Origin: a virus
Taxonomy: Duplodnaviria; Caudoviricetes
IMG/VR virus record: IMGVR_UViG_2541048004_000003
Coordinates: 14,130-78,129 of that record
Direction: 5' to 3' (one strand)
DNA length: 64,000 bases
In this document: positions 3,178-56,329 of the stretch, piece after piece
How the letters are laid out: each line of letters begins with the position of its first letter
Numbering within the stretch: position 1 is the first letter of the stretch
Made by a program: the position numbers and the translations under genes
Notes under the pieces: generated by a model
Databases searched by the model: none
Seen by the model: the letters and a program-made list of their open reading frames with translations, nothing else
Told to the model about the DNA's origin: nothing

Positions 3178-3497
3178 AGCCGTGAATGCAATTGTCCTTT
3201 GTCAAATTTCAATGCAACCCCCTTTATGCGGACATCTGAACCATCTTCATGGTTTGACACAAATACACTTGTACCCTCATCTATCGTCAAAGCCCCCTTG
3301 GGTATCTGAATGATAGCCGAATACTTGCGATAAGTACCATCGGCGGTCTGAATCTCCGAACCTCGACCATCGGTTTCCTCTCTACACATTGATAAGAATA
3401 TAGTTTGTTGGTCTTCATCAGACCAACGCCCGTCTTCCCCTTGTGTTGATTCTCCCGTTATCAAGGCAAACAAGTAGTGTGGGTATTGCTTTACCAT
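3168..3497 (-). CDS. Head closure protein
   Basis: Beta-rich 109 aa in the head-tail joining position. Confidence 0.55.
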   Translation of the reverse strand: MVKQYPHYLFALITGESTQGEDGRWSDEDQQTIFLSMCREETDGRGSEIQTADGTYRKYSAIIQIPKGALTIDEGTSVFVSNHEDGSDVRIKGVALKFDKGQLHSRLWV

Positions 3498-3805
3498 AAG
3501 TTTGACCTGTTGCGGATTTTTGGACGAGCAAACAACACATTGTCAAGCCCTAATTCATTGCAAAGTGCATTGTAATAGAGTTTCACGGCTTCAACATTCC
3601 AAGAGATTGAATACCCACCCTCTGAAACGTTCAGCATTACCCCTTTTAGGATAACCGACATTCTTTGATAGGTTGCGACATCACACGCACGAACGTCTGC
3701 TTCTGCTTCACCGTCAAGTGATGCTTTCAGCAAAACAATGTCGATGTCGTCTTCTGAAATGTTCAGCCCCGAAAGTGCCTTGGTCAAGTATTGTTTGTTT
3801 GTCAT
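3491..3805 (-). CDS. Head-tail adaptor
   Basis: Helical 104 aa directly after MCP; SEGGYSISW motif. Confidence 0.6.
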   Translation of the reverse strand: MTNKQYLTKALSGLNISEDDIDIVLLKASLDGEAEADVRACDVATYQRMSVILKGVMLNVSEGGYSISWNVEAVKLYYNALCNELGLDNVLFARPKIRNRSNLW

Positions 3806-3825
3806 TGCTCCTGATTGATTTTATA

Positions 3826-3862
3826 GGCTTAGGTGGGTATAGTTAAATACCCACCCTTGCCT
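3826..3862 (-). terminator. Hairpin after major capsid gene
   Basis: GGTGGGTAT / ATACCCACC inverted repeat. Confidence 0.55.
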
Positions 3863-3864
3863 TG

Positions 3865-4968
3865 TTAGTTCTTGTTCCAAGAAGTTGCGTTTACCTGCAT
3901 AAGAACCGAGCGACCAGCCAAGTTCCACGCTGGGAAAAGGTTACTGATACCCTCCGTTACCTCCTGCACTGGGCTTTCAGTCGAATACTTCTTGATAAGC
4001 GTATGTCCATGCATCACCTTTTCGGCAACACTTCCGGGCATCTTCTTGGCATCAATAGGACGCTTCCAATAGGTGTTGCCAAGAACCTTGCTTTCAGAGA
4101 AAAGAATAACATCATCTTCAAACGGATTTGAAGTGCTGCGCGTACCGTCGGCAAGCTCAATCGTAATATCTTGGTCGATAACAACGATTTGAAGCCCCTT
4201 GTACAGCTCTTTCTTCTTCGCAAGATAGGCATTCACCGTTTGCAAGTCGGGCGTGTCTGTTGCCCCCGTGATGCTCTCAATCAGTGTTGCACACTTCTTG
4301 ACAACCTCTTCTTGTGATGCGAACTTAGCAAACGTATCAACGTTCATAAACATAAACTTGTAGTTTGCCCCTACGCTCTTTCCTTTCTTCAAGGCTGATG
4401 GAATATCCTTACTCAAAGGCTTGCCCGATGTTCCAGACGCATAAGATGTTGCGACACCGATTTTCTGTTCTTTCGGAATCAGATAATCCACGTCATACTC
4501 GGTTACGATAGCCGCATTGTTTGAGTTCGTGAACTTCACCTTACCAAGTGAAATTTGACGAAGTGCAATCCATTCTGCACGAGCTGCGACACCGTCCCAA
4601 CAGAACTTCGTGTCTTCCGCCCAAAACTCAACAAGTGCTTTCAGGTCGGGATTATCACCCGCCATTGCAACCATAATATCGTATTCCGTCAATTCGTCCT
4701 CGTTCTTTTCACGAGAAATTGAAATCTTAGGAATATCGCCTTGAATGCGACTAATAGCATCACGCATCTTCTTGGGAATTGTCGCACCTCGTGAAACAAG
4801 GTCGGCAGCAATCTTCAAGCCTGCTTGTGCTTCAAGCATCTTCCAATCAAGGCGGTTCGTTTCTTTCAGGGGGAAAAGAGTAGGATAGTAATAATCCTTT
4901 AAGTCGTAAGTGTGAATTACGGCTTCCATATTCTTTTCGTCCAACCCTACCATCAATGATTTTTGCAT
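3865..4968 (-). CDS. Major capsid protein (lambda gpE-like family)
   Basis: 367 aa; RIQGDIPKISISR, WDGVAARAEWIALRQI; follows scaffold and decoration genes. Confidence 0.85.
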   Translation of the reverse strand: MQKSLMVGLDEKNMEAVIHTYDLKDYYYPTLFPLKETNRLDWKMLEAQAGLKIAADLVSRGATIPKKMRDAISRIQGDIPKISISREKNEDELTEYDIMVAMAGDNPDLKALVEFWAEDTKFCWDGVAARAEWIALRQISLGKVKFTNSNNAAIVTEYDVDYLIPKEQKIGVATSYASGTSGKPLSKDIPSALKKGKSVGANYKFMFMNVDTFAKFASQEEVVKKCATLIESITGATDTPDLQTVNAYLAKKKELYKGLQIVVIDQDITIELADGTRSTSNPFEDDVILFSESKVLGNTYWKRPIDAKKMPGSVAEKVMHGHTLIKKYSTESPVQEVTEGISNLFPAWNLAGRSVLMQVNATSWNKN

Positions 4969-50709: not shown

Positions 50710-51135
50710 ATGAGTAGATTTATCGAATTGAAAGATTACGACGCCACGATGCACCGCGACATACTCGATGCGCTGACACGCGAGGACAAGGTCCTGCCTG
50801 AGGTTTGCGCCGACCGCGCCGTGGGCGAGATGCGGGGATACCTCTCCGCCCGATACGACTGTGACAGACTGTTCGCCGCCACCGGCACCGACCGCAACCC
50901 GGTTGTGCTGATGATAGCCCTCGACATTGCCGCCTACCACCTGTTCAGCATCCACAACCCGCAGAAGATGTCGCAGGTGCGCAAGGACCGTTACGACCGC
51001 GCGGTGGAATGGATGAAAGGCGTGCAGCGGGGTAACGTGCTCATCGACGGAGCGCCAAGCCTGCCCGAACCCGGGCGTAGCGGGAACTCGCCCTTTCAAA
51101 TGAGAAGCAATCCCAAACGAAGGAACCACTTTTAA
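50710..51135 (+). CDS. Mu gp36-like head-tail adaptor (DUF1320)
   Basis: AVGEMRGYLSARYD, DIAAYHLF, RYDRAVEWMK. Confidence 0.85.
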   Translation: MSRFIELKDYDATMHRDILDALTREDKVLPEVCADRAVGEMRGYLSARYDCDRLFAATGTDRNPVVLMIALDIAAYHLFSIHNPQKMSQVRKDRYDRAVEWMKGVQRGNVLIDGAPSLPEPGRSGNSPFQMRSNPKRRNHF

Positions 51136-51146
51136 ACCAATACAAC

Positions 51147-52484
51147 ATGAGAAAGAATACATACAGGAAGACTGGCCGGCGGATCACCGCAGGCGGCCTT
51201 CGTCCGCTGCCGGGGCAAAATACGTCCCGCACCATCGTACTGATGCAGCCCAAACGCTTCGGCATAGACATCGACACCGTCGTGTCGGCCATCAACGCAG
51301 CCGAGAACGTGGACTTCTGCCGACGGGCCAAACTCTACGACCTCTATGCCGACATTCTGATGGACGCACACCTGACGGCCGTCATCAACAAACGCAAGAG
51401 TGCCGTGCTATGCACGCCTGTGGAGTTCCACCGAGGCGGAGTACCCGACGAGGAGATATGCGAGATGCTACGCTCGCCCTGGTTCTACCGCTTCCGCAGC
51501 GATGCCATGGACGCCCTGTTCTGGGGATTTACACTCGTACAGTTCCACCGCAACGGACAGTGGCCGGACTATTTCCTCGTGCCCCGCAAGCACGCAGACC
51601 CCGTGCGTGAGGAGATATTCCGCCATCAGACGGACATCACCGGCGAACCCTGGACGGAGTATGACGACCTGCTGTTTATCGGGAGCCGCACCGAACTCGG
51701 GCTGCTGGCGCAGGCGGCCCCCTACGTGGTGTACAAACGCAACACGCTGGCCGACTGGGCGCAGTTCTCCGAGGTCTTCGGCATGCCCGTGCGCGAGTAC
51801 CTCTACGACGCCAACGACCCCGAAGCCCGGGCGCAGATACTCAATGATGCCTATAACGAAGGCGGGGCGGGCGTATACGTGCATCCCAAGGACAGTGAGA
51901 TGAAGTTCGTGGAAAGCAACGGGAAGACGGCCAGCGCCGACCTGTATGAACGCCTGACGGAGCGGTGCAACGCAGAAATATCCAAGCTCATACTGGGCAA
52001 CACCCTGACCACCGAAGCATCGTCCACCGGAACGCAGGCCCTTGGAACGGTACACCGCAAGGTGGAGGACAGGCTGGCGCAAGCCGACCGCAAATACCTG
52101 CTTGACCTGCTGAACTACGAGATGACGGATATCTTCTCCGCCATGGGCATCGACACCTCGGGCGGGAAGTTCCTATTCAAGGAGCCGAAGGACATCGACC
52201 TGAACCAGCGCATGGAAATCGCCTCGAAAATGGATGCACTGGGGCTGCCGTTGGACGAGGAGCAGCTGTACGAGGAGACGGGATTCCGCAAGCCGGCTGA
52301 CTACGAGCAGCGAAAACGTGAACACAGGGATGTTGTTCCTCCCGTACCCGTCGGGAAAGACAAAACGGAGAAGCCGGAAAAGCCGGAAGAGGAACCGGCG
52401 GACGACAAGGAAAAAGGAGTATTCAAGGCCTTGAAGCGTTTTTTCGGCCAAGCCCCCAGAGGCGAGGGGGCTTTAGGCTGGTAG
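51147..52484 (+). CDS. Portal protein (Mu gp29/DUF935)
   Basis: DAHLTAVINKRK, WAQFSEVFGMP, ISKLILGNTLT, ALGTVH. Confidence 0.9.
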   Translation: MRKNTYRKTGRRITAGGLRPLPGQNTSRTIVLMQPKRFGIDIDTVVSAINAAENVDFCRRAKLYDLYADILMDAHLTAVINKRKSAVLCTPVEFHRGGVPDEEICEMLRSPWFYRFRSDAMDALFWGFTLVQFHRNGQWPDYFLVPRKHADPVREEIFRHQTDITGEPWTEYDDLLFIGSRTELGLLAQAAPYVVYKRNTLADWAQFSEVFGMPVREYLYDANDPEARAQILNDAYNEGGAGVYVHPKDSEMKFVESNGKTASADLYERLTERCNAEISKLILGNTLTTEASSTGTQALGTVHRKVEDRLAQADRKYLLDLLNYEMTDIFSAMGIDTSGGKFLFKEPKDIDLNQRMEIASKMDALGLPLDEEQLYEETGFRKPADYEQRKREHRDVVPPVPVGKDKTEKPEKPEEEPADDKEKGVFKALKRFFGQAPRGEGALGW

Positions 52485-53737
52485 TGGAGGACCTGTACTA
52501 CAACGATTCCTGCCCTTCGTGCGCCGCTTTCAGGGGTGAGGCGGCACAAGGATTCACCTTCGATAAAGAAGTGCTTAAACAGGCTTTAAAGACCATTTAT
52601 AAGCAGGACTTTTCTCCTACCGCGGACATCGAGGAGCATCTTTTCGATGAGACCTTCGCCACCTTCGGCCGTGCCATAGACGAGGGGTACGGCAAGCCCG
52701 CGCCGGGGGCATCGAACGAGGGCTTCTATCACGAGCTGCGCCGCAACGCCGCTGTGTTCTCTGCCTTCAAGGTGCACCGCCTGCAGAACGACATCGCCGC
52801 GCAACTGGTGAACGGGAACGGGCAGCTGAAGCCGTTCGAGCGCTTTGCCGAGGATGTCCGCCCCATGCTCGACCACCAAGTGGAACGGTGGCTGCGCACC
52901 GAATACGACACCGCCGTTATCCGTGCCCATCAGGCGGCGGACTGGCGCAAGTACATGGAGCAAGCCCACATCCTGCCCAACCTGCGGTGGCTGCCTACCA
53001 CCAGCGCCACGCCCGACATCGTGCACAAGCAGTTCTGGAGCATCGAACTGACCCTCCCCGTTGGACATCCCTTCTGGAATGCACACCGCCCGGGAGACCG
53101 CTGGAACTGCCACTGCTCGCTCGAAGCTACGGATGATGCCCCCACGCCGGGACACGAGATTCCGAAAACCACTCCGCAGAACAAGTCCGCGCCGGGACTG
53201 GACAACAACCCAGGCACGGACGCGAAGCTCTTCAGTGACACACATCCCTACGTGGCGCATGCCTATAAAGGGGCGAAAAAGGCGGTGGAGAAGTTCATCA
53301 AGGAGAAGTTCCCCGACAAGGCAAGTGTCAAGGTGGAGCCGAAGCACGACGAACCGAAAAGCTATGCCGCGCGGACAAAGGAGATAAAGAAAGCGGCCGC
53401 ACCGCTGAAAGAAGAGATATTCGTAAACAAGCGGTTTAAAAAAGACATCCGCATCACCGGGCGAGGCATTAAAGAATGGCTCAACCAGCCACACGAGCAT
53501 TATGCGCACAAGAACGAACTACTGCTGCGCATGGGCGATGTGATGAAGAAAGCCAAATACATGGGCTACGGAAAGGATAAGCATGACCCTTCTGTTAAGG
53601 CGCATCTGTTCGAGGTGAAGATACTGGGTGATAAATCGTGGATTATCGTGCGCGAGTTGAAACCCGGACGGGTGGAGATTTATAGCATATCGGACAGCCC
53701 GAGGATATTGGATATCATAGAAAAACCGACCTCCTGA
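52484..53737 (+). CDS. MuF minor head protein with C-terminal putative BECR-like (LPD3/PBECR-type) domain
   Basis: WLRTEYDTA, PGDRWNCHCSL, LDNNPG MuF core; about 125-aa alpha/beta extension after about 53350. Confidence 0.8.
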   Translation: MEDLYYNDSCPSCAAFRGEAAQGFTFDKEVLKQALKTIYKQDFSPTADIEEHLFDETFATFGRAIDEGYGKPAPGASNEGFYHELRRNAAVFSAFKVHRLQNDIAAQLVNGNGQLKPFERFAEDVRPMLDHQVERWLRTEYDTAVIRAHQAADWRKYMEQAHILPNLRWLPTTSATPDIVHKQFWSIELTLPVGHPFWNAHRPGDRWNCHCSLEATDDAPTPGHEIPKTTPQNKSAPGLDNNPGTDAKLFSDTHPYVAHAYKGAKKAVEKFIKEKFPDKASVKVEPKHDEPKSYAARTKEIKKAAAPLKEEIFVNKRFKKDIRITGRGIKEWLNQPHEHYAHKNELLLRMGDVMKKAKYMGYGKDKHDPSVKAHLFEVKILGDKSWIIVRELKPGRVEIYSISDSPRILDIIEKPTS

Positions 53738-53838
53738 CAAGGATTCCGCGGAACTGCAATCCGCGGCCTGAATCAGAAAGCCGGCCTTTACACCCAAGCC
53801 ACGGCCGGAACTATAATCCGGCAAGCCTGAAGGTGTAC
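53726..53838 (-). ncRNA. Candidate antisense RNA with two anticodon-stem-loop-like hairpins
   Basis: Tandem structured units; G.U pairs favour the minus strand; TATCTTTG -7 box at 53841-53848. Confidence 0.6.
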
Positions 53839-53840
53839 CG

Positions 53841-53848
53841 CAAAGATA
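53841..53848 (-). promoter_or_regulatory. Bacteroidota -7 box facing the MuF 3' end
   Basis: TATCTTTG on minus strand, with a TTTG 22 nt upstream (53871-53874). Confidence 0.6.
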
Positions 53849-53888
53849 CGACTATTTAATTAATAAACAACAAATTGAACCAGTTTTT

Positions 53889-54482
53889 ATGACTATTAAA
53901 GAATTCCACCAATACGCCAAGCAGAAGGAGAAAGAGCTGGATCGGCTCTACAACGACATCCTGCCCGTCAAAGTGGGGGCAATCGCCAAACGGCATTTTC
54001 AGGACAATTTCCGCAAGGGGGGATTCGTGGATGGCGGCCTCACGCCCTGGCCGGCCACCCGCAGGCAGCAGTCCGGAGGGAAGTCGGCCGCTTCGCGCTA
54101 CGGCCCCTTGTTGAGCAGCCGCACCCACCTGATGCGCAGCGTGCGCGACGTGCCAGGGCGGGCACGTACCACCATTGTCAGCGACCTGCCATACTCCCGT
54201 ATACACAACGAGGGAGGTACCATAGAGACGCATCCCAACGTCACACCCCGCATGCGGCGCTTCGCTTGGGCAAAGTTCTTCGAGGCGGGTGGCGGGGGAA
54301 AGAAAGAGACCGAAGTGCCGGCCGAAGCTCTGAAATGGAAGAAACTGGCGCTGACGCGCAAGGCGAAACTCGACATCCGGGTCTACATCCCCCAGCGAAA
54401 ATTCATCGGGGCAAGCCGGGAACTTGAAGAACGGATATCGGAGAAAATCATCAACGAGACAAGGAAGGTACTGGGGAAATGA
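53889..54482 (+). CDS. Virion morphogenesis protein (Mu gpG-like)
   Basis: FQDNFRKGGF...WP, LPYSRIHNEGG, IPQRKFIG. Confidence 0.85.
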   Translation: MTIKEFHQYAKQKEKELDRLYNDILPVKVGAIAKRHFQDNFRKGGFVDGGLTPWPATRRQQSGGKSAASRYGPLLSSRTHLMRSVRDVPGRARTTIVSDLPYSRIHNEGGTIETHPNVTPRMRRFAWAKFFEAGGGGKKETEVPAEALKWKKLALTRKAKLDIRVYIPQRKFIGASRELEERISEKIINETRKVLGK

Positions 54483-54510
54483 AGACGTTAGACATTTAGA
54501 TTAGAAAAAT

Positions 54511-54960
54511 ATGGAAAAGCTATTCAACATTTTGCAGCGGGTCATTGCCGAGGGCATGTCCGAACTGAGACTGACAGACGAAGACTACGGACAATTAGAG
54601 ATACAGGAAGACCACTATCCCGTGACGTTTCCCTGCGTACTGCTGGCCGTGCCCGAAGTGGCATGGACGGAACTGGCGGGAGGGGCGCAGCGCGGAACGG
54701 CTACCGTCATCACCCGGCTGGCCATAGACTGCTACCAAGACACGCACTACGGCAGTGGAACTGAGGATGAGACCGCACGCCGACAACAGATGCGTACCCG
54801 GCTGCACAGACTTCTGCAAGGCAGAAAACCCCTGTTCGGGTGCGGTGCGCTGGTGCGCCGCAAGAGTAGAGACTACAGTCTGCCCGGAGGAATAAAGGTG
54901 TACGAAACGGAGTATGAGATGACGGTGGCCGACACGCCCTGTGTGGTCAGTCGTCAGTAA
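54511..54960 (+). CDS. Tail terminator-like protein
   Basis: DEDYGQLE, PVTFPCVLL; position. Confidence 0.6.
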   Translation: MEKLFNILQRVIAEGMSELRLTDEDYGQLEIQEDHYPVTFPCVLLAVPEVAWTELAGGAQRGTATVITRLAIDCYQDTHYGSGTEDETARRQQMRTRLHRLLQGRKPLFGCGALVRRKSRDYSLPGGIKVYETEYEMTVADTPCVVSRQ

Positions 54961-55374: not shown

Positions 55375-55485
55375 GCCCTCGACCGTTAGCATAGATACCA
55401 CTCACATACTAATAAAATGCGCCGCAACGCACAGCCGAGGGCAAGACCTTCGCTGCGTTACGGCGCATTCGTACATGTGAGTGGT
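55375..55485. promoter_or_regulatory. Structured pseudoknotted leader upstream of methyltransferase
   Basis: Three long complementary pairs (see findings). Confidence 0.6.
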
Positions 55486-55519
55486 TGACAAAAGTAATAA
55501 CTATAATAGAAAAAACAAA

Positions 55520-56329
55520 ATGAAAACACCCATTTCTTATTATGGAGGCAAGCAAACAATGCTAAAGCATATCCTTCCTCTGATTCCAAGTCATAAACTA
55601 TACACAGAGGCTTTCTGCGGTGGAGCAGCGGTATTGTTTGCCAAGCGTCCGGCCGATGGCGAGATCATCAACGACATCGACATGGATATAACAAACTTCT
55701 ATTGGATGGCCAAGGCCTATTATCATGACTTAAAGCAAGAGATTGAAAAGACTTTGCACAGCCGGGATATGCACGCCCATGCGGGACATATTCTGCAATA
55801 TCCTCAATTCTTTTCACCGGTGCAGCGGGCATGGGCTGTTTGGGCGTTGTGTAAGATGTCCTTTGCCAGCATGATAGACGGTTCGTTCGGCTATGATTTT
55901 GGCGGCGGAATGCCGAAAAAACTGCGTAACGCAAAGGATGAGTTTACCGAATGGCTATGCGCCCGGCTCGATAACGTGACCATAGAGAACAGAGATGCAC
56001 TGAATGTCATCTCCACTTACGACCCACCTGATACTTTTCATTTTGTAGACCCGCCTTATATCAACAGTGATTGCGGGCATTATGAGGGTACATTCGATGA
56101 GTGTTGCATGGAGAAGCTCCTGCAGTTATTGGAACAGGTCAAAGGTAAGTTCATGCTGACAATGTTTCCCTTGAATATGATAGAAGAATATGCCAATAAA
56201 AACGGGTGGGTCATTCACCAGATAGAAAGAACAATCAGCGCTTCAAAGACAAGCCGAAGAAAGCAAGAAGAGTGGATGATCTGCAATTATAAAAACTCTG
56301 CACATGGGAAACAAACCTGCTTATTTTAA
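55520..56329 (+). CDS. D12-class N6-adenine DNA methyltransferase (Dam-like)
   Basis: MKTPISYYGGKQ, YTEAFCGG, IENRDAL, FVDPPY. Confidence 0.92.
   Translation: MKTPISYYGGKQTMLKHILPLIPSHKLYTEAFCGGAAVLFAKRPADGEIINDIDMDITNFYWMAKAYYHDLKQEIEKTLHSRDMHAHAGHILQYPQFFSPVQRAWAVWALCKMSFASMIDGSFGYDFGGGMPKKLRNAKDEFTEWLCARLDNVTIENRDALNVISTYDPPDTFHFVDPPYINSDCGHYEGTFDECCMEKLLQLLEQVKGKFMLTMFPLNMIEEYANKNGWVIHQIERTISASKTSRRKQEEWMICNYKNSAHGKQTCLF

Follow-up and report, generated by a model that had tools for sequence, protein, structure and literature searches.

A minus-strand structured RNA gene behind a MuF-LPD3 head protein of a Mu-like provirus, and its possible role as an LPD3 immunity factor

The RNA gene and its place in the head module

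The subject of this report is a small structured RNA gene in a Caudoviricetes provirus, which lies on the minus strand directly behind the gene of a MuF head protein whose C-terminal tail is the Pfam domain LPD3. The locus is found in the window, that is, the whole stretch of 64,000 nucleotides analyzed here (positions 14,130 to 78,129 of the 78-kb provirus record IMGVR_UViG_2541048004_000003; one strand), where it occupies the minus strand of positions 53720-53848, with a promoter, two extended hairpins that carry loops of 7 nt (UUAUAGU and UUGCAGU), and a terminator formed by a U-run. It fills the 151-bp gap between the MuF gene and the next gene, which is gpG-like. The parts of the RNA gene, as read from the sequence and the folds, and the surrounding genes are as follows:

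53841-53874, minus strand: Bacteroidetes-type promoter, with the -7 box TATCTTTG at 53841-53848 and the TTG/TTTG -33 elements at 53866-53874 (sequence)
53789-53837, minus strand: hairpin unit 1, with the outer stem UACACC/GGUGUA and an inner stem with G.U pairs (folds)
53804-53822, minus strand: apical hairpin of unit 1, GCCGGA-UUAUAGU-UCCGGC (folds)
53726-53785, minus strand: hairpin unit 2, with a 12-bp outer stem, CCGGCUUUCUGA/UCAGGAGGUCGG (folds)
53746-53766, minus strand: apical hairpin of unit 2, CCGCGGA-UUGCAGU-UCCGCGG (folds)
53720-53725, minus strand: U-run UUUUUC, adjoining the outer stem of unit 2 on its 3' side (sequence)
52484-53737, plus strand: MuF head protein of 417 aa, with the C-terminal LPD3 domain at about 53309-53734 (Pfam)
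51147-52484, plus strand: Mu portal gene, directly upstream of MuF (Pfam Portal_Mu, E 1.3e-79)
50710-51135, plus strand: Gp36-like gene of the head module
53889-54482, plus strand: gpG-like virion morphogenesis gene, outside the RNA module (Pfam Phage_tail_S, E 4.1e-7)

The plus strand reads caaagata at 53841-53848 and caaa at 53871-53874, the minus-strand equivalents being TATCTTTG and TTTG, respectively. The predicted transcript has about 115 nt, running from about 53835 to 53720. The 3' arm of unit 2 spans the last four codons of MuF and its stop (53735-53737), and the U-run follows the 12-bp outer stem of this unit directly, so unit 2 is predicted to act as an intrinsic terminator within the last MuF codons. 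When positions 53726-53850 are folded, the minus strand reaches -63.7 kcal/mol (z -6.4) and the plus strand -40.9 (z -3.2), with six G.U pairs on the minus strand and none on the plus strand. A preliminary description of the locus had proposed this promoter, the stem and loop sequences of both units, the restriction of the G.U pairs to the minus strand, the overlap with the MuF stop, and the view that the units are not tRNAs, and all of these statements agree with the sequence and the folds; the terminator U-run was not mentioned there. No tRNA is found in the window by ARAGORN, and no Rfam family matches better than E 0.65 in positions 53000-54600, where the best match, mir-138, scores 19 bits against a gathering score of 50, which is the level of chance.

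The 151-bp gap contains no conserved open reading frame (ORF), and the same is true of the loci of the relatives. A small-peptide gene was considered and ruled out, given that neither a start codon nor a frame is conserved across the relatives. The search of the window for a second site complementary to the loop module returned matches at chance level only.

The RNA locus is surrounded by a Mu-type head module on the plus strand, which includes the Gp36-like, portal, MuF, and gpG-like genes. The tail of the MuF protein is assigned to LPD3 (PF18798) with an E-value of 1.9e-13 over aa 294-396. Its match to Phage_Mu_F (E 1.2e-3) lies under the Pfam cut-off, and the N-terminal MuF domain is recognized through its context, with the Mu portal before it and gpG after it, a gene context also occupied by MuF homologues of 27-92% identity. 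The nearest genome match is a prophage in Bacteroides heparinolyticus DSM 23917, whose MuF is 92% identical. The head/tail region of the prophage also contains a gene for a D12-class N6-adenine DNA methyltransferase (55481-56329; Pfam E 4.9e-19).

Relatives of the locus were collected through MuF and gpG from viral and genome collections. In every locus with an LPD3-like MuF tail, the same RNA elements are found straight after the MuF stop, on the opposite strand. The outer stem, of 6 to about 20 bp, encloses internal loops and an apical hairpin (stem of 5-7 bp, loop of 7 nt); a TAnnTTTG box precedes this structure, and a U-rich tail, in most of the members a clear U-run, follows it. In 15 of the 16 family RNAs, the distance from the box to the outer stem is 3-11 nt, against an expectation of 0.012 boxes per 30 nt from the background. 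About 20 outer-stem sequences are mutually unrelated and all keep their pairing. Because the outer stems have no common sequence, the apical hairpin alone could be aligned (with MAFFT), and the outer stems were assessed by per-sequence folds. The apical module, GGA-UUGYAKU-UCC, is constant while the stems diverge, the family loop being UUGYAKY, and compensatory changes are found in four of the six apical-stem pairs. The loop type of unit 2 also occurs in L030, L059, L099, L170, L171, and L175.

The lean toward the minus strand is a property of the family as a whole. The minus strand is the more stable in all 17 non-redundant units, by a mean of -10.1 kcal/mol, with 59 G.U pairs on the minus strand against six on the plus strand, and a second, independent set, collected by the RNA motif, again gave 17 of 17 units. 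Judged from the sequence, with its conserved promoter, covarying stems, terminator, and strand lean, the locus is a genuine, self-contained minus-strand RNA gene.

Linkage to LPD3 and the slot behind MuF

A search for the hairpin motif in 168 loci and the window returned 35 matches, of which 34 lie at the stop of a MuF protein whose tail is homologous to the LPD3 of the window, while one is a chance match elsewhere. Conservation beside homologous MuF C-termini, which the preliminary description had named as a check, is borne out. In three of the phages (L059, L107, and L108), 1-1.6 kb of other genes lie between MuF and gpG, and the RNA remains at the MuF stop.

Further LPD3 proteins were drawn from a search of 1.84 billion protein representatives, which yielded 373 sequence clusters of LPD3, and the RNA is found behind the domain in four protein architectures. 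These are the MuF-LPD3 fusions, including one only 34% identical to that of the window; a 773-aa protein behind an SPP1-type portal; a stand-alone LPD3 protein of 129 aa; and an 810-aa protein with Gln_amidase and LPD3, which has a small minus-strand ORF in addition to the RNA. The last of these (L171:736-3517) has a weak Gln_amidase match and is followed on the minus strand by an 86-aa ORF as well as an LPD3-type hairpin RNA, which would be in keeping with a separate protective gene for each toxin domain; the 86-aa ORF has no similarity to the ORFs associated with Gln_amidase.

The search that started from the RNA gave a similar result. Among 2.9 million viral contigs, 56 exact occurrences of the 17-mer CCGGATTGYAKTTCCGG were recorded, and in 49 of these an LPD3 domain (E 1e-19 to 1e-55) ends at the hairpin, on the opposite strand; of the remainder, one is cut by the end of the contig and six have neither LPD3 nor the promoter box. 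The domain itself is rare, being present in five of 401 Bacteroidota genomes. On this comparative evidence, the RNA is coupled to the LPD3 domain in both directions, and not to the layout of the phage.

A different arrangement was observed in L183 (G042:C1), which belongs to a distant LPD3 subfamily and encodes a 169-aa LPD3-like ORF with a YYDH-type C-terminus. Behind this ORF, the minus strand carries a TATATTTG box and a structured sequence of about 125 nt, and a strong terminator overlaps the stop; together these would represent a different RNA-like element in the same position.

The slot behind MuF was compared in 116 non-redundant loci of one clade of Bacteroidales Mu-like phages, in which a single MuF core is joined to exchangeable tails, i.e., LPD3, Gln_amidase (PF15644), CdiA_C (PF18451), and others, or has none. 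Behind the Gln_amidase-tailed MuF (PF15644, E down to 2e-22) the slot holds a minus-strand ORF of 77-85 aa, and behind two other tail types it holds ORFs of 77-82 aa. Behind CdiA_C (PF18451) and several unknown tails, there are other promoter-hairpin-terminator units without an ORF. Where MuF is tail-less there is no gap, and the MuF stop overlaps the gpG start. The position behind MuF thus appears to behave as an immunity slot, in which the RNA would stand in for the immunity protein: MuF toxin systems have an immunity protein gene here, and at the locus of the window its place is taken by the RNA gene.

A number of side observations concern the same slot. The ORF-less minus-strand units were found in L018, L026, L045, L080, L090, L132, L135, L140, L142, L152, and others, and the motif GCUACGGC is common to the RNAs of L080, L142, and L164, whose MuF tails are of one nuclease-like type with weak PF18451 matches. 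In L119 (positions 3323-3910), a MuF tail with weak zincin/metallopeptidase matches is followed by no gap, RNA, or ORF before gpG, which implies that not all tails need a partner. In L023, L024, and L042, where the MuF tail has only 23 aa, the gap behind it measures 259 bp and contains neither an obvious promoter box nor a conserved ORF; it may be the remnant of a lost cassette. In many members of the clade (e.g., L101, L107, L108, and L131), a Cys-rich linker resembling KDCYHCPYIDGC, seen at about columns 14-30 of the protein alignment, joins the MuF core to the variable tail, and may be a zinc knuckle or a recombination joint of the tail cassettes; the MuF of the window is devoid of this linker.

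The tandem arrangement given in the preliminary description is present in the window, but is restricted to this phage and its 92%-identical relative in B. heparinolyticus, all the other members having a single unit. The two units have different affinities. Unit 2, with its GCA loop beside the terminator, is common to the nearest LPD3 clade (L030) and differs at one position between the phage of the window and the B. heparinolyticus relative. In unit 1, the core is almost the same as the single-unit RNA found in the L007-type phages, whose LPD3 is only 55% identical; this unit differs at seven positions from that of the 92%-identical relative, including a change of G34 to A. The AUA triplet of the unit 1 loop, read in the preliminary description as a Tyr anticodon next to the Cys anticodon GCA, is thus present in the window as described, but is a recent G34-to-A variant, the close relative having GUA, within a family whose loop is UUGYAKY. 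The presence of a foreign-type second hairpin would seem to suit a logic of collecting immunities better than a role in cis antisense.

A possible LPD3 antidote and the competing explanations

The preliminary description referred to the MuF protein as a nuclease. Its tail is Pfam LPD3, which is not a demonstrated nuclease; the list of structural neighbours is dominated by RNases of the BECR/RelE type, but with Z-scores of only 3-5. The AlphaFold model of the C-terminal domain (71 sequences) has a pLDDT (predicted local distance difference test) of 91 and a pTM (predicted template modelling score) of 0.84, and consists of a long helix (H16-35), three short helices, and a four-strand antiparallel sheet arranged as a meander. 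In the all-against-all structural search, BrnT ranked first (Z 5.1), followed by RelE, two CdiA-CT RNases, MqsR, and colicin D, with further matches to the colicin E5 domain, RegB, HigB, and YoeB; the BECR toxins that head this list have Z-scores of 5.1-3.5. The LPD3 sequence profile found no match in the PDB, nor was any match obtained with PADLOC, or with Pfam PBECR in the MuF-LPD3 protein. An identity of LPD3 as a BECR-like RNase is, on this modelling, a reasonable lead, and not a result. LPD3 co-occurs with predicted PBECR RNases in polyvalent proteins of Helicobacter, and the tails of MuF proteins in general are considered to be injected effectors (PMC5512222).

The reading preferred here, tentatively and as a little short of probable, is that the small non-coding RNA is the cognate partner of the LPD3 tail of MuF, for which it would most likely serve as antidote or immunity factor. 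It is built on the anatomy of the RNA gene, its conservation, and its two-way linkage to LPD3, and from these we infer transcription of the RNA, toxicity of LPD3, direct binding between the two, and delivery in the virion. Host RNA polymerase would start at the TATCTTTG promoter, independently of the late operon, and the RNA would, as a consequence, be produced in the lysogen and early after infection. Transcription would extend over about 115 nt and stop at the outer stem of unit 2 and its U-run. Each hairpin would display the apical module GGA-UUGYAKU-UCC, and LPD3, with its putative BECR/RelE-like fold and possible RNase activity, would recognize this module and be held inactive by the binding. 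MuF-LPD3 would be built into the head and would probably enter the next cell with the DNA, and the cell harboring the phage would be protected by the RNA, possibly also against the LPD3 of related phages through the second, foreign-type hairpin. What favors this reading is that the loop and its closing pairs are conserved while the stems diverge, for which a purely cis-antisense RNA would have no need. The immunity role proposed in the preliminary description is thus retained in its general form, with the self-contained minus-strand gene, the specific coupling to LPD3, and the immunity slot as its basis, and is weakened in its specific form, anticodon mimicry, at loop positions 32, 37, and 38.

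A number of points weigh against the antidote reading. Adjacent elements are co-inherited, and linkage is, by itself, no proof of interaction, and the hairpin is absent from the distant LPD3 subfamilies L180-L183. The matches to BECR/RelE-type structures are weak (Z 3-5.1), in a range that may reflect a common arrangement, and Foldseek found nothing below E 1e-3 when the LPD3 model was compared with the PDB, the top rows being designed NTF2-like proteins. LPD3 is listed among the domains without known function (Iyer et al. 2017, PMC5512222). Finally, an antisense mechanism fits as well, given the overlap of the RNA with the 3' end of the MuF mRNA.

This last point leads to the main rival, which is rated as unlikely, although with enough in its favor to be taken seriously, and by which the RNA would be a cis-antisense regulator similar to those of type I toxin-antitoxin systems. 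The convergent RNA would pair with the 3' end and 3' untranslated region (UTR) of the late MuF-LPD3 mRNA, trigger its cleavage or block its expression, and silence leaky toxin in the lysogen without touching the protein. The convergent orientation, the position of the terminator arm within the last MuF codons, and the full complementarity of the RNA to the intergenic part of the late mRNA are all consistent with this mechanism, which would also explain a separate RNA sequence for each tail type; the Bacillus subtilis pairs txpA/RatA and bsrG/SR4 reportedly act through 3' overlaps of this kind. Complementarity in cis survives any mutation, however, and would not demand the constancy seen in the loop UUGYAKU and in the GGA/UCC pairs that close it, across lineages with unrelated outer stems. 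A YUNR motif is absent from the loops, no more than about 12-25 nt of the coding sequence are overlapped, and the added hairpin, whose core matches the RNA of a phage with an only 55%-identical LPD3, would have no obvious use in cis.

A more specific alternative, considered improbable, develops the anticodon resemblance noted in the preliminary description, and proposes that LPD3 is an anticodon nuclease for tRNA-Tyr (GUA) and tRNA-Cys (GCA), the hairpins being uncleavable or competing look-alikes of the anticodon stem-loop. The 7-nt loop and U33 of that description are conserved, as are G34 and A36 in the family, whereas its purine at position 37 is not, this position being G or U. The only variable position of the triplet, Y35, is the one that distinguishes tRNA-Tyr from tRNA-Cys, and the anticodon nucleases colicin D and E5 are found among the structural neighbours of LPD3. 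The B. heparinolyticus genome, moreover, has true tRNAs with the UU-NNN-GU framework, one example being tRNA-His (UUGUGGU). In this same nearest host genome, the loops of tRNA-Tyr and tRNA-Cys are CUGUAAA and CUGCAAA, with which the family loop agrees over U33-G34-Y35-A36, but disagrees at positions 32, 37, and 38. Many members have U37, which real tRNAs avoid, the apical stems have 6-7 bp (5-7 bp over the whole family) as against 5 bp, a 7-nt loop with U at its second position is frequent by chance, unit 1 of the window itself has A34, and the nuclease role of LPD3 is a matter of modelling.

The preliminary description had also named covariation of the loop triplet with the toxin variant as a check. 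Two columns of the LPD3 alignment do separate the GUA from the GCA members, but the split is confounded by ancestry. The LPD3 tree is star-like, and its only supported groups are the clade of the window, L002, and L030 (GCA) and two GUA clades. Taken together with the fold lead, the anticodon resemblance is suggestive, and statistically not compelling. In its fullest form, which is marginally less probable still, LPD3 would be a virion-delivered anticodon nuclease for the tRNAs with G34-Y35-A36 (Tyr and Cys), the RNA immunity would display an uncleavable copy of the loop, the loop type (GUA or GCA) would set the specificity, and the extra hairpins would have been collected against the toxins of rival phages. 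If true, this version would amount to a polymorphic immunity system based on RNA.

The element may also have no partner function at all, and serve as a transcriptional insulator or interference device in the late operon, formed by the promoter and the strong terminator, or as the boundary of a mobile cassette carried with the tail by recombination. Each unit is indeed built like a long terminator hairpin, and the element lies at the junction where the C-terminal cassettes swap, but terminators tolerate any loop, and here the apical loop sequence is conserved. The element is absent where MuF is tail-less, it is present beside stand-alone LPD3 genes outside Mu-type operons, and the promoter is placed so as to transcribe the hairpin alone, all of which make this explanation a decidedly doubtful one. 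Very unlikely, lastly, is a decoy against host defense nucleases (the second option of the preliminary description, for anticodon nucleases of the host) or a trans-acting regulatory RNA with a host target, in either case unrelated to LPD3, given that, while the RNA has its own promoter, as a moron gene would, and other phages are known to use tRNAs of their own against defenses that cut tRNAs (e.g., PMC11464382), this leaves the 49 of 56 motif occurrences that abut LPD3 and the presence of the RNA at the LPD3 stop in four architectures unexplained, and the window has no second complementary site.

The antidote reading would have a number of implications. To our knowledge, polymorphic toxins and phage-injected effectors are neutralized by proteins in all the described cases, and a MuF effector with an RNA in its immunity position would, if true, represent a new solution to toxin immunity. 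It would also provide the first functional handle on the orphan LPD3 domain, and a compact protein-RNA recognition pair with an apical module of 13 nt. Other small RNAs occupy this slot behind the nuclease-type tails of many gut Bacteroidales prophages, so that the principle could be a common one in the human gut virome. Even if it were merely an antisense regulator, the RNA would be a well-defined new family, with no entry in Rfam.

Comparison with known systems

The RNA shares features with several known systems. In the type III toxin-antitoxin systems (ToxIN, CptIN, and TenpIN), a small structured RNA neutralizes a protein directly, and the proposed logic is analogous here, where a small structured RNA would act against a probable endoribonuclease. 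Unlike type III, there is no array of identical repeats, most of the members having one hairpin and the window two non-identical units, and the RNA of the window is convergent and has its own promoter, rather than lying upstream in the toxin operon. The LPD3 domain, in turn, is BECR-like at best, without the ToxN fold, and is part of a virion component.

The type I pairs with 3' overlaps (txpA/RatA and bsrG/SR4) are similar in the overlap between the 3' end of the toxin mRNA and a small convergent RNA transcribed from a promoter of its own. At the locus of the window, the last MuF codons are covered by the U-run together with the 3' arm of unit 2, and the 3' UTR by the remainder of the RNA, in antisense. 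The protein differs, however, being a 417-aa MuF-LPD3 head protein and not a small hydrophobic membrane peptide, and the coding overlap is short, at about 12-25 nt, while the conserved apical loop points to recognition in trans.

On the side of the protein, a parallel is offered by the PBECR/BECR domains fused to MuF (PMC5512222), with which LPD3 shares the position of a presumably injected C-terminal domain fused to MuF, and RelE, BrnT, CdiA-CT, and colicin D/E5 as the nearest folds; it differs from them in the absence of a Pfam PBECR match and in its weak structural scores. On the side of the RNA, an unnamed candidate, HMP2_10280, was recorded near Phage_Mu_F genes in Capnocytophaga (Fremin and Bhatt 2021, PMC8040213, Table S1). 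As compared by description only, it is likewise a predicted structured RNA beside the MuF genes of a Bacteroidetes prophage, but comes from another genus, and no function or link to the MuF tail was proposed for it.

The MuF polymorphic toxins of temperate phages, which have immunity genes downstream (Jamet et al. 2017, PMC5576092), share the general plan of the locus, in which MuF, as the N-terminal head domain, carries an exchangeable effector at the C-terminus, with the cognate protective gene directly behind. The Bacteroides example Bxa has two immunity proteins (PMC11699363), and an RNA in the immunity role is mentioned neither in PMC5576092 nor in the related MuF toxin literature searched. 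Within the phage clade of the window, the Gln_amidase-tailed MuF follow the rule of these toxins. The slot of the window, unlike theirs, holds a structured RNA of 65-115 nt on the opposite strand and no ORF, behind a domain, LPD3, that is not an established toxin.

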